From an uncultured virus (IMG/VR IMGVR_UViG_3300037961_004118) (Duplodnaviria > Heunggongvirae > Uroviricota > Caudoviricetes > Kyanoviridae), in the IMG/VR virus record IMGVR_UViG_3300037961_004118: 64,000 bases of DNA; one strand, given 5' to 3'. Numbering within the stretch: position 1 is the first letter of the stretch; every line of letters begins with the position of its first letter. Shown here piece by piece: positions 19,188 through 59,720 of the stretch. The notes under the pieces are model-generated. The model was not told where the DNA came from. It saw only the letters and a program-made list of their open reading frames with translations, and did no database searches. A program made the position numbers and the translations under genes.

Positions 19188-20328
19188 AGTAGAGGGTATG
19201 ACCGTATTCAATAGTAAAAAAGTAGACACAAAGAAGCAACCAATGTTTTTTGGTCAACCTCTGGGAGTCCAGAGGTATGACTCTTATAAGTATCCAGTGT
19301 TCGACAGATTGACCCAGCAACAACTGGGTTACTTCTGGAGACCTGAAGAGGTATCCCTACAAAAAGATCGTGCAGATTACCAAACTTTATCGCCTGAGCA
19401 AAAACACATCTTCACTAGTAACCTTAAGTACCAGATCATGTTGGATTCTGTACAAGGGCGTGGTCCTGGGATGGCTTTTATCCCTTACTGCTCACTGCCT
19501 GAGTTAGAATCTTGTATGTTAGTATGGGAGTTTATGGAGATGATCCATAGTCGCTCCTACACATACATCATTAAGAATGTTTATTCTGATCCTAGCGAAG
19601 TCTTTGATACCATCTTGGATGATGAACGTATCCTTGATAGAGCATCCTCGGTTACTGGATCTTATGATGAGTTCATCGAACATGCTCATCAGTATGATGG
19701 CAGCACTATGTGGGATCTTGCAAGAGAAGGTCACCAGGGTGGACAATGGGAACGCCGTGAGTTGAAGCGTAAACTTTATCGTGCAGTTGCTAACGTAAAT
19801 ATCCTAGAGGGTATTCGTTTCTATACATCGTTTGCATGTTCTTTTGCTTTTGGTGAGAACAAACTCATGGAGGGTTCTGCAAAGATTCTTTCTCTGATTG
19901 CTCGTGATGAATCTCAACATCTGGTGCTTACTCAGAACATTCTGAAAAACTGGATGAATGGAGATGATAAAGAGATGCAAGAGATTGCTAAGGAAGAGGA
20001 AGGTTGGGTTGCAAACATGTTCCAGACCGCAGTAAATGAAGAGAAAACTTGGGCAGATTATCTGTTCAAAGATGGTTCGATGATTGGTCTTAATGAACGT
20101 TTGTTACATAACTACGTTGAATGGATTGCTAATCGTAGAATGAAAGCCATTGGTATCAAACCGATGTTCGATATCCCTGCTAAGAACAATCCTTTGCCCT
20201 GGACAGAGCACTGGTTAAATAGTAAGGGTCAACAAAATGCACCTCAAGAAACGGAGATTGAAAGTTATGTCATCGGAGGAATCAAACAAGATGTCAAATC
20301 AGATTCGTTCGCAGGATTTTCTCTCTGA
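19168..20328 (+). CDS. nrdB: Ribonucleotide reductase beta subunit (start may be 19198)
   Basis: FWRPEE, EMIHSRSY, EGIRFY, RDESQH. Confidence 0.98.
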   Translation: MSPAKSEVEGMTVFNSKKVDTKKQPMFFGQPLGVQRYDSYKYPVFDRLTQQQLGYFWRPEEVSLQKDRADYQTLSPEQKHIFTSNLKYQIMLDSVQGRGPGMAFIPYCSLPELESCMLVWEFMEMIHSRSYTYIIKNVYSDPSEVFDTILDDERILDRASSVTGSYDEFIEHAHQYDGSTMWDLAREGHQGGQWERRELKRKLYRAVANVNILEGIRFYTSFACSFAFGENKLMEGSAKILSLIARDESQHLVLTQNILKNWMNGDDKEMQEIAKEEEGWVANMFQTAVNEEKTWADYLFKDGSMIGLNERLLHNYVEWIANRRMKAIGIKPMFDIPAKNNPLPWTEHWLNSKGQQNAPQETEIESYVIGGIKQDVKSDSFAGFSL

Positions 20329-20545
20329 TGCTGAGTGGGATTCGTTCCTAGATAAAACCGACCAACCATCTAATCCTTTCGCGGAGGCACAATGGGAAAT
20401 GGAAAAGAAAAAAGCACAGCAACAGGAAAGAAACACTAGACATAGTGTTGATAAGGGTCAAGAGTTTATCAAATCTGGTATGACCCTTATCACTGATGTA
20501 GAATCTGATAGATATCTAAAGAAAACGAAAAAGGTATCAGAGTGA
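20291..20545 (+). CDS. Hypothetical protein
   Basis: GGAGGA RBS; overlaps the nrdB end. Confidence 0.55.
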   Translation: MSNQIRSQDFLSDAEWDSFLDKTDQPSNPFAEAQWEMEKKKAQQQERNTRHSVDKGQEFIKSGMTLITDVESDRYLKKTKKVSE

Positions 20546-20569
20546 ACTACATATATCATGGTTTCATGA

Positions 20570-20577
20570 TATAAATA
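20570..20577 (+). promoter_or_regulatory. T4-type late promoter ahead of the riboswitch cassette
   Basis: TATAAATA. Confidence 0.7.
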
Positions 20578-20617
20578 TAGATGTAGCACTTGCTACACAC
20601 TTAACGTTCATCTCACA

Positions 20618-20815
20618 ATGTTCAGTACTCTACTGGCATTGACCTTAGCCTCTCATGATGCGTCACCTTATGGGTGGCATATGACTTGTGAAAGGTTTCT
20701 ACAGAGAAGAGTTGAAATCCTTATGGATGACAACTTGGATAGACGATCTAAATATAATCTAATAGGTTATTTAAGATCTAAAGTTGATGGTCAATGCGAT
20801 CAGATGCTAATATAG
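20618..20815 (+). CDS. 65-aa two-Cys protein inside the aptamer 1 loop
   Basis: ORF; signal-peptide-like N-terminus; resembles 20854-21015. Confidence 0.6.
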   Translation: MFSTLLALTLASHDASPYGWHMTCERFLQRRVEILMDDNLDRRSKYNLIGYLRSKVDGQCDQMLI

Positions 20816-20853
20816 TGAGACGCAAGTAAGTCGCGGAACGGAGCGTTCATCCC

Positions 20854-21015
20854 ATGATTGAAGTATTACTCTACACAACCATGAATTGTACCGATACAGC
20901 AGAAATGTTGGCACGGATTGAATCTCATGACTGGTTAGAGGAACAAGCAAAGGTTGAACTAATTGAAGTAATTCAAGAAGCAACGCCTCATTGTGCATGG
21001 GACGCAAACGATTGA
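20854..21015 (+). CDS. 53-aa two-Cys protein inside aptamer 2
   Basis: MIEVLLYTTMNCTDTAEML...EATPHCAWDAND; GGAG upstream. Confidence 0.6.
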   Translation: MIEVLLYTTMNCTDTAEMLARIESHDWLEEQAKVELIEVIQEATPHCAWDAND

Positions 21016-21056
21016 AGGAACGGGGACTACCAACCCTAGTATTTCAGGAGTAACAA

Positions 21057-21221
21057 ATGAACACACTTACTATCATCAAGAAGCAAATCGAGAAGGCAGC
21101 AGCACTGCACGATGCACAAATTGCTATGACCACCTATCGTGGTGTCAAGTTTGAGTGTAAGCAGGGCGGTGAGGAGACTCACGGCACCTTCTGCTATCGT
21201 GGTCACACTTACACCAAGTGA
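21057..21221 (+). CDS. DUF4278-like peptide (54 aa)
   Basis: AGGAG RBS; TYRGVKF and CYRGHTY motifs. Confidence 0.75.
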   Translation: MNTLTIIKKQIEKAAALHDAQIAMTTYRGVKFECKQGGEETHGTFCYRGHTYTK

Positions 21222-21226
21222 TTGCC

Positions 21227-21322
21227 ATGGAAACATTAACAGTCGTTGGACTTATGTCCTTAGGTTGTGCCGCATTTATCGGCATGATTTATGGTGAACT
21301 CATTCTTCTACAGAAGATTTGA
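21227..21322 (+). CDS. 31-aa single-TM peptide
   Basis: METLTVVGLMSLGCAAFIGMIYGELILLQKI. Confidence 0.5.
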   Translation: METLTVVGLMSLGCAAFIGMIYGELILLQKI

Positions 21323-21336
21323 GGGGGGTATGACAA

Positions 21337-21495
21337 ATGCTGAAGGTCAGACTTGAGTATGGCCTTCCAGAATTTGACCCTGATAAACACGATCCAGATA
21401 AGGTCTTCGGACTTCTAACTTATCGTGGAGTACACTACGCCAAGTGGGTTAATCTTAAACCATTTGGTATCAAAAACTGGAAAGTCAAATCTTGA
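21337..21495 (+). CDS. DUF4278-like peptide (52 aa)
   Basis: LTYRGVHY motif. Confidence 0.65.
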   Translation: MLKVRLEYGLPEFDPDKHDPDKVFGLLTYRGVHYAKWVNLKPFGIKNWKVKS

Positions 21496-21504
21496 TTTCA
21501 ACAC

Positions 21505-21529
21505 AAAGCACCCAAATGGGTGCTTTTTT
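21505..21529 (+). terminator. Rho-independent terminator
   Basis: AAAGCACCC-AAAT-GGGTGCTTTTTT. Confidence 0.85.
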
Positions 21530-21565
21530 GCTATTCTAAATACTGATAACCTATACAGGAGAGTC

Positions 21566-22222
21566 ATGAAAATCTTTCTGGACTGTTCTGACCCTGAGTT
21601 AATCACGAGTGCATTTGAGACTGGTTTAATCGACGGAGTTACAACTAACCCCAGTCTCATGTTGAAAGCAGGTAAAGATCCTAAGCAAGTTATCAAGGAG
21701 ATCTCTGAGATCTTTCCTTGGAACGCTTCCATTTCTGCTGAAGTGGTCGGTGATACTGCCGAAGAGATGCTTGACATGGCACAAGATTACTTGGAAATCG
21801 GACCAAACATTACAATCAAAGTACCTTGCACAGTTGAAGGACTTAAAGTCTGTAGAGAACTATCAGATGATGATGTGCAAGTAAACGTCACATTAATTTT
21901 CAGCACGGCACAAGCGATACTTGCTGCGAAAGCAGGAGCAACATTTGTTTCTCCTTTCGTTGGTCGTGTTTTCGATCAGCACTGGAATGGTATACACCTT
22001 ATTGAGGAGATTGCAGATGTCTTCGCTACACACCAAGTTAAAACTAGGGTACTCGCTGCTTCCATTCGTGAAGCTAATCAGGTATCCGATTGTTTCAGAG
22101 TGGGTGCTGATGTATGTACTCTTCCGCTTCCCATTTTTTACAAACTTTATAAGCACATTCTTACTGATAAGGGACTAGAACTCTTTGATGAAGACTGGAA
22201 ATCACTTCAAGAAAAATTGTGA
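21566..22222 (+). CDS. talC: Transaldolase TalC
   Basis: MKIFLD, GVTTNPSL, IKVP, VNVTLIFS, SPFVGR; AGGAG RBS. Confidence 0.96.
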   Translation: MKIFLDCSDPELITSAFETGLIDGVTTNPSLMLKAGKDPKQVIKEISEIFPWNASISAEVVGDTAEEMLDMAQDYLEIGPNITIKVPCTVEGLKVCRELSDDDVQVNVTLIFSTAQAILAAKAGATFVSPFVGRVFDQHWNGIHLIEEIADVFATHQVKTRVLAASIREANQVSDCFRVGADVCTLPLPIFYKLYKHILTDKGLELFDEDWKSLQEKL

Positions 22223-23907: not shown

Positions 23908-24075
23908 CTAGTCTTTGCCAATAGACTATAAACTAGATGGTGTTTGACTGGATGACAGTCGCTCATATGTAGAAAGAGTTTCTCCATTCTCTAAAATAAA
24001 AACGGAGTGGTGGAGTCAATCTTGACCCTATCTGGTTTCTTGCTTCCATAAAAAGCAAGTGGCGATGCATGAACC
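23908..24075 (+). ncRNA. manA/wcaG-like cyanophage structured RNA
   Basis: Repeated hairpin-pseudoknot units (GTTTCTCC..GGAGTGG; GTTTCTTGCT..AGCAAGTGG) and GAGTCAA-TC-TTGACCC; family recalled from memory. Confidence 0.6.
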
Positions 24076-25819: not shown

Positions 25820-25842
25820 GCACATCGCTTTTCCTTTATACT

Positions 25843-25947
25843 ACTCCCCGTAAACCGAGACCTCTAGGGAGTCAAAACTACGTCTCTCATACCTCTGCTT
25901 AGGGTGCAGAGGAATAGTAACTCCACCATGTCCCTGATGGTCTTACT
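25843..25947 (+). ncRNA. PhotoRC-II RNA motif (psbA leader)
   Basis: ACTCCC/GGGAGT, CCTCTGC/GCAGAGG, ACCAT/ATGGT stems with GAGAC/GTCTC and AGGG/CCCT pseudoknots directly 5' of psbA. Confidence 0.75.
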
Positions 25948-31952: not shown

Positions 31953-32124
31953 AGAACTGAATTGTTTTGAAGAAGCACTAAAGCACTTCGGAACAAGAGT
32001 TGAAATCATCTGTGCTATGGAACTTGGTGGTAGACTTAAATCTGAGGATGCCTATCAAATGATCAAGGACGAGATGAAAGAACTAAAAAAGTGTAGGAAA
32101 CTCTACAAAAATCAAGACTGCTAA
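31939..32124 (+). CDS. Conserved hypothetical protein
   Basis: FGTRVEIICAMELGG..EDAYQMIK. Confidence 0.7.
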   Translation: MGMYEELNCFEEALKHFGTRVEIICAMELGGRLKSEDAYQMIKDEMKELKKCRKLYKNQDC

Positions 32125-32142
32125 CTTGTATAAATACTCACC

Positions 32143-32198
32143 TGTAACTTCTGTTACAAACTGAAACACTTGCCAAACTCAGGCAAGTATGCTATACT
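32143..32198 (+). promoter_or_regulatory. NtcA-like box plus sigma70 promoter
   Basis: TGTA-ACTTCTGT-TACA; TTGCCA-17-TATACT. Confidence 0.55.
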
Positions 32199-35986: not shown

Positions 35987-36745
35987 ATGCCAAGAGCACG
36001 CAAAAGGAATACCACTAGTAATCCTGTTTCTAATATGACTGCAAAACAGATTAGAAGAAAGAAACCGATTGATAAATCCTACATGGTTCCTATCAATCCA
36101 CTTACTCCTAACCAAGAGACAGTCTTCCAGCAATATGCTGAGGGACAGAATCTTCTTCTCCATGGTGCTGCTGGTACTGGTAAGACATTTATTACATTGT
36201 ATCTTGCGTTACAAGAGGTACTTGACGAATCTACACCTTATGATAAGATATACATTGTAAGGTCTCTTGTTCCGACTCGTGAGATTGGTTTCCTTCCTGG
36301 AGATCATGAGGACAAGTCTGCACTTTATCAGATTCCTTACAAGAACATGGTTCGATACATGTTCAGTATGCCTGATGACAATTCATTCGAGATGTTGTAT
36401 GACAACCTCAGAGCGCAGGAAACTATTAGTTTCTGGTCTACAAGTTTTATTCGCGGTGTTACTCTTGATAATGCCATTGTTATTGTAGACGAGTTCTCTA
36501 ATCTCAACTTCCACGAACTCGATTCGATGATCACTCGTATCGGGGAAGACTCCAAGATTATGTTGTGTGGTGATATCACTCAATCAGACTTGGTAAAAGA
36601 AAATGAGAAAACTGGTGTCTCGGATTTCATTCGTATTCTTCAAGCGATGCGCGAGTTTACTTGCGTTGAGTTTGGTATTGATGATATTGTTCGCTCTGGA
36701 CTGGTCAAGTCTTATCTTCTTACTAAGTATAATTTAGGTTTCTAA
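35987..36745 (+). CDS. phoH: PhoH-like ATPase
   Basis: GAAGTGKT; IGFLPG; RGVTL; IVRSGLV. Confidence 0.96.
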   Translation: MPRARKRNTTSNPVSNMTAKQIRRKKPIDKSYMVPINPLTPNQETVFQQYAEGQNLLLHGAAGTGKTFITLYLALQEVLDESTPYDKIYIVRSLVPTREIGFLPGDHEDKSALYQIPYKNMVRYMFSMPDDNSFEMLYDNLRAQETISFWSTSFIRGVTLDNAIVIVDEFSNLNFHELDSMITRIGEDSKIMLCGDITQSDLVKENEKTGVSDFIRILQAMREFTCVEFGIDDIVRSGLVKSYLLTKYNLGF

Positions 36746-59249: not shown

Positions 59250-59471
59250 ATGAATGATGACTATATAAGAGACACGGCAAACTACAAGTTTGGTGGGTTT
59301 CCACTCTCAGCAGTAAATGTGTTGAGATTGATCAGCGAATTAGAAGGTTCTTATCAACTACTCAAGTATTTGGGTTTCAAAGAAGATATGGACACTCTCG
59401 ATGAAATTAAACAAAAGTATTACAAACTCTACTTCAAACTCAAAAAACAAGAAAAATTACCGCCCCCGTAG
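59250..59471 (+). CDS. Hypothetical protein ending inside tRNA-Thr
   Basis: LISELEGSYQLLKYLGF. Confidence 0.65.
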   Translation: MNDDYIRDTANYKFGGFPLSAVNVLRLISELEGSYQLLKYLGFKEDMDTLDEIKQKYYKLYFKLKKQEKLPPP

Positions 59472-59533
59472 CTCAGCGGTAGAGCAGGGCTTTTGTAAAG
59501 CTCAGGTCGCAAGTTCAAATCTTGTCAGGGGAA
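59462..59533 (+). tRNA. tRNA-Thr(TGT), 3' acceptor strand imperfect and overlapping tRNA-Ala
   Basis: GGGCT-TTTGTAA-AGCTC; GTTCAAATC; GCCCCCG pairs with CAGGGGA. Confidence 0.8.
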
Positions 59534-59600
59534 TTAGCTCAGTTGGTAGAGCGCCTGCTTTGCAAGCAGGATGTCAGGAGTTCGAGTCTCCTATTCTCCA
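59528..59600 (+). tRNA. tRNA-Ala(TGC)
   Basis: GGGGAAT/ATTCTCC with G3:U70; CCTGC-TTTGCAA-GCAGG. Confidence 0.95.
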
Positions 59601-59648
59601 TGGGGGAGTACAAAAGATCTGTATTTTAGAAACAGCGCCCCCTCCCAT

Positions 59649-59720
59649 TCCTCTTTAGCTCAGCGGCAGAGCAAGCGACTGTTAATCGCTCGGTCCTAGG
59701 TTCAAATCCTAGAAGGGGAG
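59649..59720 (+). tRNA. tRNA-Asn(GTT)
   Basis: TCCTCTT/AAGGGGA; AGCGA-CTGTTAA-TCGCT. Confidence 0.95.

Follow-up and report, generated by a model that had tools for sequence, protein, structure and literature searches.

In a 64,000-nucleotide (nt) stretch of DNA from a T4-like cyanomyovirus (IMG/VR record IMGVR_UViG_3300037961_004118; the whole stretch is called the window below), the leader of a small operon probably consists of one composite riboswitch of the glutamine-I class that holds two genes, with folding of the RNA and translation of the genes in competition. The RNA is built from two units, each opening with CGUUC and ending in GAACG (copies numbered #1 and #2 from 5' to 3'). One open reading frame (ORF1) fills the loop of helix P2 in unit 1 and another (ORF2) fills the loop of helix P2' in unit 2. 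Comparison with its homologues indicates that the element is a widespread glutamine-I riboswitch variant that encloses two genes. An initial annotation, made from the window alone, had described two tandem glutamine-riboswitch-like aptamers with a gene in each P2 loop. All of its motifs, stems and ORFs lie exactly where it had placed them, and as a set of features that description stands; its choice of P1 partners does not, as judged from substitutions in homologues.

The arrangement of the two cores is revealed by exchanges within the P1 strands. A protein search with the ORF1 alignment brought up the first two contigs in which strand GAACG#1 reads CAACG and strand CGUUC#2 reads CGUUG, with CGUUC#1 and GAACG#2 intact. 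A scan for a base other than G at this position returned at least 120 loci; among the matches listed, 114 fit the element (84 unique), and CAACG#1 is paired with CGUUG#2 in all 84 of these unique variant elements. CGUUC#1 is unchanged in 77 of the 84 listed: 67 have CGUUC#1/GAACG#2 and in 10 the retrieved DNA stops short of the 3' end, whereas the other 7 carry the matched strands CGUUU#1/AAACG#2. Pairing within each unit, as annotated initially (20605 with 20836 and 20844 with 21018), would place C.C and G.G mismatches (or U.C and G.A) in these 84 variants, whereas nested pairing of CGUUC#1 with GAACG#2 and of GAACG#1 with CGUUC#2 keeps every pair. These compensatory swaps contradict the tandem topology; they are a kind of proof that nature seldom supplies, and show that the two sensor cores are nested rather than side by side, with helix P3 common to both. 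The unconstrained minimum free energy fold of 20598-21030 (ViennaRNA) contains outer P1 (5/5 pairs), inner P1' (5/5), P2 (6/6) and P2' (7/7) and none of the tandem P1 pairs. In six matches of the same scan that do not fit the element, it breaks after CAACG-GAG-CG and continues as unrelated, coding-looking sequence, a break that may reflect inserted or rearranged DNA within the inner hairpin.

Pairs in the other helices were counted after anchoring at the junctions, in 169 loci that correspond to 154 unique elements. Junction-anchored counts were used since RNAalifold, run on a MAFFT alignment of long unit 1, missed P2 owing to gap placement and returned nothing but the ends of P1 and a long-range GCAU/AUGC helix. 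All five positions of P3 are paired in 154/154 unique elements, and its second position is G-C in 138, A-U in 11, U-A in 3 and G.U in 2. Scanning for substitutions at the second P3 base gave 18 loci (15 AAUCG and 3 AUUCG), and each of the 17 complete variant loci is compensated (14 AAUCG with CGAUU, 3 AUUCG with CGAAU); the same kind of scan at position 3 gave no loci. Pairing of AGTCG with CGATT, a side remark in the initial annotation, is thus a real covarying helix. P2 positions 1-3 are paired in 154, 154 and 151 of the 154 unique elements and P2' positions 1-4 in 154, 154, 153 and 153. P2 uses U-A and A-U at position 1, C-G and U-A at position 2, and C-G, U-A, U.G and A-U at position 3, with compensatory pair types at positions 1-5; its paired fraction is 0.881, compared with 0.692 when partners were shuffled. 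Covariation of P2, which the initial annotation had left to be examined in homologues, is therefore found in P2 and P2' alike.

The structure is also kept where genes are missing. Of the 154 unique elements, 93 have a short and 61 a long unit 1, and a pattern scan found a compact unit 2 in 103 viral contigs (38 unique inner sequences). These 103 contigs have no ORF2 and retain both cores, P2' being a freely covarying hairpin there; the inner junction reads CGCAAA (or CGCACA or CGCAAC) in 36/38 of the unique inner sequences, and J2/3, the junction between P2 and P3, is identical in 38/38 elements in which it was free to vary. Both cores are present in 37/37 homologous loci of a first set and in 33/33 loci found via the ORF2 protein. 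Relatives of ORF1 are encoded in 546 IMG/VR stretches; among the best 80 of these, 73 lie between CGTTCA and an exact unit-1 core and 7 have variant cores. In the 64 kb of the window, the pattern ACGCAA-N5-15-GGAACG occurs twice, against 0 expected from 100 shuffles, well above chance. Retention of the cores in elements without ORF2 and in those with a short unit 1 indicates that the RNA is under selection independent of coding.

Class membership was assessed with the Rfam models RF01739 (glutamine-I, glnA RNA; cut-off 35 bits) and RF01704 (Downstream-peptide; cut-off 33 bits). The RF01739 model misses the window because of the two loop inserts, and natural homologues with short loops were taken as a stand-in for the artificial loop replacement suggested initially. 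Unit 1 of phage S-P4 is such a form, a 38-nt element with a short hairpin and without an ORF, and the P2 loop of phage S-RIM2 is a remnant of about 38 nt. In that S-RIM2 loop (locus L003, 514-552), TCTCACAAT... and ...ATAGTGAGA flank about 20 nt of unrelated filler, and judging by its sequence the element may have arisen by deletion from one that carried ORF1.

Isolated short units fell below both thresholds (26.4 bits with RF01704, 25.8 bits with RF01739; overall range 21-29 bits). A locus in which both units are short reached 46.4 bits with RF01739 (E = 8.5e-8) as a single aptamer across both units, parsed as CGUUCA, P2 and CGCAAGUA from unit 1, AGU..[41 nt]..ACU as P3, and GAAGGAACG from unit 2. 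The RF01739 gathering score was attained by 10/20 compact loci tested (35.2-46.4 bits); eight of these matches, 87-101 nt long, span both cores and two consist of unit 2 alone (35.2 and 36 bits). The AGUA and GAAG blocks of RF01739 are split between the units and so meet only across the AGUCG/CGAYU helix, that is, P3. In the window, the junction block at 20820-20828 shows one difference from RF01739 (ACGGAAGUA to ACGCAAGUA) and GAAGGAACG at 21014-21022 is exact. RF01739 has a short P3 hairpin; here P3 encloses at least 37 nt with the second core, and a scan of viral contigs for a single-core form with a P3 loop of 3-32 nt gave no loci. With RF01704 the homologues scored at best 29.4 bits, below the cut-off of 33, the window gave no match, and the second hairpin around GGAACG is absent. 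Since natural short-loop homologues reach the RF01739 gathering score, the assignment of the cores to the glutamine-riboswitch class, made initially from the motifs, is supported.

Both loop ORFs belong to PHROG families without assigned function: ORF1 to phrog_6471 (E = 9.2e-34, positions 1-65 of 66) and ORF2 to phrog_504 (E = 3.5e-21, positions 1-53 of 53). Each protein begins with a short hydrophobic segment and contains two invariant cysteines separated by about 35 residues. The frame of ORF2 was analysed in 139 unique elements with a long unit 2. The length of unit 2 is 2 modulo 3, which keeps the frame, in 129/139; the start codon lies at +10 from CGUUCA in 123/139 and is ATG in 131 and TTG in 8; and the stop codon is the UGA of CGAYUGA in 127/139. 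In the main ORF2 subfamily (106 sequences) the entropy over the three codon positions is 1.10/0.62/1.47, the proportion of nonsynonymous differences (pN) is 0.34 versus 0.69 for synonymous differences (pS), the median ratio of nonsynonymous to synonymous rates (dN/dS) over 122 closer pairs is 0.41, and the other two frames hold 4.2 and 5.9 stops per sequence. Note that the last codons of ORF2 (..WDAND, stop) run through P2', the inner junction and P3. Highly divergent ORF2 subfamilies all end in ..DAND, encoded by GACGCAAACGACUGA, and as the GACGCAAACGACUGA RNA is also conserved where the ORF is absent, this tail is dictated by the RNA.

The linker between GAACG#1 and CGUUC#2 is GAG or GAGC in 37/42 unique ORF2-bearing elements versus 1/37 compact ones, counted only where the search had left the linker free (Fisher 8e-16, uncorrected for relatedness). 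Together with the preceding G, the GAG linker forms GGAG, 10 nt 5' of the ORF2 AUG. The ends of each gene also match one another. The ORF1 stop codon lies within or beside the P2 3' strand, and P2 is predicted to extend into ORF1 (about 20618-20644 with about 20783-20813), which places the ORF1 AUG inside a predicted helix of about 28 bp. Duplexes between the first and last 40 nt of the ORF1 loop averaged -28.1 kcal/mol for cognate ends, -18.6 when the two ends came from diverged loci and -14.6 after shuffling, with a better duplex for the cognate ends in 98% of 50; the corresponding values for ORF2 were -16.9, -14.3 and -12.1, with cognate ends better in 77% of 135. Coding selection, frame retention, the GGAG that accompanies ORF2 and the cognate closing helices indicate that ORF1 and ORF2 are real protein-coding genes, as had been proposed from the window, where the placement of the ORF2 start in P2' and of its last codons in the core is directly seen.

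What these proteins do was approached by profile searches. Pfam gave nothing informative for ORF1 or ORF2, searches of PDB sequences with profiles of both gave nothing below E = 0.19, and the ESM Atlas returned virus-only hypothetical clusters alone for ORF1. Paralogy of ORF1 and ORF2 was considered and is not established (hhalign probability 11-14%, E about 0.002). Among ORF2 subfamilies, hhalign links A to B at 89.5% and B to D at 96%, scores that stem partly from the RNA-imposed C-terminus.

The operon starts with the promoter at 20570 and finishes with the terminator at 21526. The outer core forms a three-way junction of P1, P2, J2/3, P3 and the 3' side, and P3 opens, without a loop, into a second, circularly permuted core made of P1', P2' and CGCAAA (coordinates in Table 1). 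The start codons of both ORFs and their stops (that of ORF1 in P2, that of ORF2 in P3 and the junction) are built into riboswitch helices, and the long-range helices between ORF ends draw the aptamer strands together over about 140-200 nt. In the mechanism that we propose, the inner hairpin would fold first, P2 and P2' after each ORF has been transcribed, and outer P1 last, its closure coming only once all of about 418 nt have been transcribed. Glutamine would stabilise the nested fold, which by analogy with Synechocystis gifB would turn on translation of the downstream DUF4278 (IF17-like) gene, and the same fold would hide the start codons of ORF1 and ORF2. Ribosomes on ORF1 or ORF2 would open P2, P2', P3 and outer P1, whose strand lies 3-7 nt past the ORF2 stop, leaving the sensor unfolded. 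As the fold would bury the starts and ribosomes would open the helices, sensing and translation of the embedded genes would be mutually exclusive. Only tentatively do we extend this to a scheme in which the aptamer helices themselves are the expression platform, the glutamine-bound fold having two ligand sites coupled via P3 and setting the IF17-like gene on and the embedded genes off, with co-transcriptional translation delaying sensing. If true, this would be a reciprocal three-gene, translation-gated switch in one riboswitch.

Several points weigh against the composite riboswitch with competing translation. The window itself gave no glutamine-family match with Rfam at the gathering threshold or at E ≤ 10, J2/3 departs from the family consensus by a C in place of G, and the inner core lacks the AGUA and GAA (E-loop) blocks. 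Some long unit-1 elements have only three contiguous P2 pairs at the junction, ORF1 lacks a Shine-Dalgarno sequence, and RNAalifold on 92 spacers between aptamer and start codon gave no consensus structure for an expression platform. The loci used for the pair counts were gathered with patterns that fix parts of the core and are phylogenetically related, so that the counts are not independent events, and the RNA-library contigs described below are limited as regards transcription, ends and strand. As to topology, all four P1 strands in the window are consensus, so its sequence is compatible with either arrangement; P3 is missing from the minimum free energy fold; and the forced nested and tandem folds (-119.0 and -118.8 kcal/mol; unconstrained -121.4) differ by 0.2 kcal/mol, so that thermodynamics alone is indecisive. 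These topological points would suit two independent tandem aptamers, each with its own P1 and joined by an optional kissing contact, as would the two compact loci in which unit 2 alone passed RF01739 and the tandem glnA RNAs noted in a passage of Weinberg 2010. Such a pair is nevertheless highly improbable, as it would be mismatched in each of the 84 unique variants listed, where nested pairing is perfect, and would divide between its units the family AGUA and GAAG blocks, which are joined only across P3.

Two other readings accept the nested RNA. The ORFs may be optional cargo in tolerant loops, the aptamer controlling the DUF4278 gene only, with no meaningful reciprocal regulation and with closing helices that serve solely to keep the sensor working. 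The variable presence of ORFs in unit 1, the compact unit 2, the S-RIM2 remnant and the several very different protein subfamilies encoded in the loops all agree with such cargo. We consider it somewhat unlikely, since the start codons lie inside P2 or P2' at a fixed offset, the stop codons are part of helices, ribosomes on ORF2 must cross P2', P3 and the E-loop side, and the co-occurrence of the GGAG linker with ORF2 suggests that the RNA fold and ORF expression are coupled. Alternatively, the conserved nested RNA may no longer sense glutamine and may act instead in mRNA stability or processing or as a protein-binding scaffold. The C in J2/3, the missing E-loop blocks of the inner core and the scores of single units under both Rfam thresholds would be explained in this way. 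Against it, the association with DUF4278 is the same as in validated host switches, as these are presented in the excerpted text of PMC6212724; compact forms pass the RF01739 gathering score; and the junction nucleotides are near-invariant over hundreds of loci whose flanking genes go down to 42% identity. A non-sensing scaffold thus seems improbable.

With glutamine-I riboswitches such as that of gifB, the element shares P1 (CGUUC/GAACG), a P2 right after CGUUCA, a J2/3 of the form ..AAGUA, P3 and the 3' block GAAGGAACG, together with a DUF4278-type gene downstream and a nearby NtcA-type site, which is predicted in the phage. Unlike these riboswitches, the element is phage-borne, its P3 has a second, permuted core in place of a loop, and entire genes (65 codons in P2, 53 in P2') occupy its hairpin loops; in addition, G is replaced by C in J2/3, and the Rfam model does not detect the window. 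Group I introns carry ORFs in peripheral loops, and glycine riboswitches occur in tandem. The element shares with group I introns a structured RNA that tolerates a coding insert in a hairpin loop, except that here the RNA is a riboswitch rather than a ribozyme and the inserts are not homing endonucleases; like tandem glycine riboswitches it would place two sensing cores on one leader, but here the cores are nested and share a helix. Aptamers are usually treated as compact non-coding domains, whereas here the loops hold genes and the starts and stops lie in helices. The system offers a direct test of competition between translation and RNA folding, and is relevant to the ways in which marine cyanophages sense, and may even alter, the nitrogen status of their hosts via IF17-like peptides.

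According to the excerpted text of PMC6212724, the leader of gifB, which encodes IF17 in Synechocystis, contains a glutamine-I riboswitch that acts as an ON switch; gifB, in which the riboswitch occurs together with NtcA control (excerpts of PMC6212724 and PMC7760959), is the host parallel to the phage element. The class used by the hosts of these phages is glutamine-II, in the same portions of PMC6212724. With glutamine-II (RF01704, marine picocyanobacteria) the phage element has in common CGUUCA, a hairpin, CGCA, GGAACG and the association with DUF4278, but it scores 18-29 bits against the cut-off of 33, has no second hairpin around GGAACG, and pairs GGAACG#1 with the next CGUUC. Rfam 'glnA' matches have been listed for cyanophages S-CREM1 (99 nt, 44.0 bits) and P-TIM68 (95 nt, 46.7 bits) in the excerpted part of PMC9964418. 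These matches to a 53-position model are 95-99 nt long, in keeping with the compact nested form (87-101 nt); in that part both are given as database matches only, without loop genes and with the nested second core unmentioned. In the portions of PMC9964418, PMC9602691 and PMC9004378 that concern them, glutamine riboswitches of T4-like cyanophages are likewise mentioned only as Rfam matches. As the Rfam annotation in the PMC9964418 table, within its excerpted part, lists only two cyanophages, phage riboswitches appear to be under-counted in surveys. A full-text literature search brought up no account of a nested double core or of loop genes, which agrees with the initial statement that none was known; Ames and Breaker 2011 and Ren et al. 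2015 might contain one.

The element is widespread. At least 413 cyanophage records in GenBank contain its 40-nt core (20817-20856), with identity of ≥ 99% in 245, and IMG/VR adds hundreds of contigs with the element. With 20400-21600 as query, blastn matched 420 phage records, all named as Synechococcus, Cyanophage or Prochlorococcus phages. Among prokaryote genomes (one per species) the core is found in only five stretches. One is a 194-kb contig, the size of a phage genome, of a Synechococcus metagenome-assembled genome (MAG), another a 188-kb contig of a Nonlabens assembly, and the other three are small MAG contigs (one of an uncultured bacterium, two of a Euryarchaeota MAG); these stretches presumably represent cyanophage DNA that ended up in cellular genomes through binning or assembly.

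Table 1 Positions of the riboswitch element, its genes and other features of the window
Feature	Position	Strand	Remarks
102-aa (amino acid) ORF	20237-20545		phrog_1336, E = 1.5e-39; overlaps the end of nrdB; stops just 5' of TATAAATA
nrdB	ends 20328		
TATAAATA motif	20570-20577	+	sequence
TGTA-N8-TACA palindrome TGTAGCACTTGCTACA	20582-20597	.	NtcA-box-like; 5' hairpin GUAGCA-CU-UGCUAC also possible
Outer P1 5' strand, CGUUC#1	20605-20609	+	partner 21018-21022
P2 5' strand, UCUCAC	20611-20616	+	partner 20815-20820
ORF1	20618-20815	+	65 aa; phrog_6471; 2 Cys; fills P2 loop (~198 nt)
P2 3' strand, GUGAGA	20815-20820	+	overlaps ORF1 stop UAG (20813-20815)
J2/3, CGCAAGUA	20821-20828	+	RF01739 consensus CGGAAGUA but for G to C
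P3 5' strand, AGUCG	20829-20833	+	partner 21009-21013
Inner P1' hairpin	20836-20848	+	GAACG (20836-20840), GAG loop, CGUUC (20844-20848)
P2' 5' strand, UCCCAUG	20850-20856	+	includes ORF2 start codon; partner 20996-21002
ORF2	20854-21015	+	53 aa; phrog_504; 2 Cys; fills P2' loop
P2' 3' strand, CAUGGGA	20996-21002	+	
Inner junction, CGCAAA	21003-21008	+	
P3 3' strand, CGAUU	21009-21013	+	G.U pair at position 2 in the window
GAAG and outer P1 3' strand GAACG#2	21014-21022	+	RF01739 consensus GAAGGAACG
AGGAG	21046-21050	+	Shine-Dalgarno of downstream gene
54-aa protein	21057-21221	+	two YRG motifs; phrog_545; DUF4278-like (IF17-like)
~31-aa hydrophobic peptide ORF	21227-21322	+	kept in S-8S29, Syn2 and S-P4 (by eye)
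52-aa protein	21337-21495	+	one YRG motif; phrog_6192
Intrinsic terminator	21505-21526	+	hairpin, then T run
Transaldolase gene	starts 21568		
tRNAs, six matches	23057, 52532, 58389, 59468-59720		typical of T4-like cyanophages
wcaG RNA	23974-24073		46.7 bits; typical T4-like cyanophage feature
PhotoRC-II RNA	25831-25925		78.4 bits; typical T4-like cyanophage feature

Upstream of the riboswitch, TATAAATA, which we take to be a T4-late-type promoter motif, is present in 24/151 unique upstream regions, and most of the others carry a sigma-70-like TTGAC..TATAAT. Of 151 unique loci, 109 have the half-sites GTA-N8-TAC within the 70 nt upstream of the element (background, about 0.02 per region); in the window, TGTA-N8-TACA occurs four times (20582-20597, 32092-32107, 32143-32158 and 36198-36213) versus 1.37 expected. 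At late-promoter loci the palindrome of the NtcA-like box is longer, with covariation among its inner bases (GTAGCA..TGCTAC, GTAACA..TGTTAC, GTATC..GATAC). Since the N8 is itself palindromic at these loci, an RNA hairpin is an alternative to a protein site, and the box beside the riboswitch may be a 5' RNA hairpin besides or instead of a putative NtcA site.

RNA-library contigs (three runs from two studies) cover the cores and the gene at 21057, which is consistent with, and not proof of, transcription. This evidence consists of Logan contigs, in which bins without cover, such as 21412-21587, are uninformative. A 208-nt contig equals 20835-21042 with no differences, and another joins 20853 to 20999 via TTCG, a natural compact unit 2.

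Downstream, DUF4278 genes had been expected to follow the aptamers. The protein at 21057 matches DUF4278 (PF14105) at E = 0.0085 and 16.9 bits, below the Pfam cut-off of 25.3; among its homologues, 30/31 match at E ≤ 0.01, the best at 1.7e-7, in agreement with that expectation. Just 3' of outer P1, 21023-21045 consists of a G-run, an A-rich loop and a C/U-run that by eye look like a small covarying hairpin, followed by a conserved U-rich spacer and the AGGAG (also by eye). The peptide of about 31 aa at 21227-21322 has no family match in Pfam or PHROG; it lies between the two YRG genes and carries the motif ..VVGL.S.GCAAFIGMIYGELILLQK..

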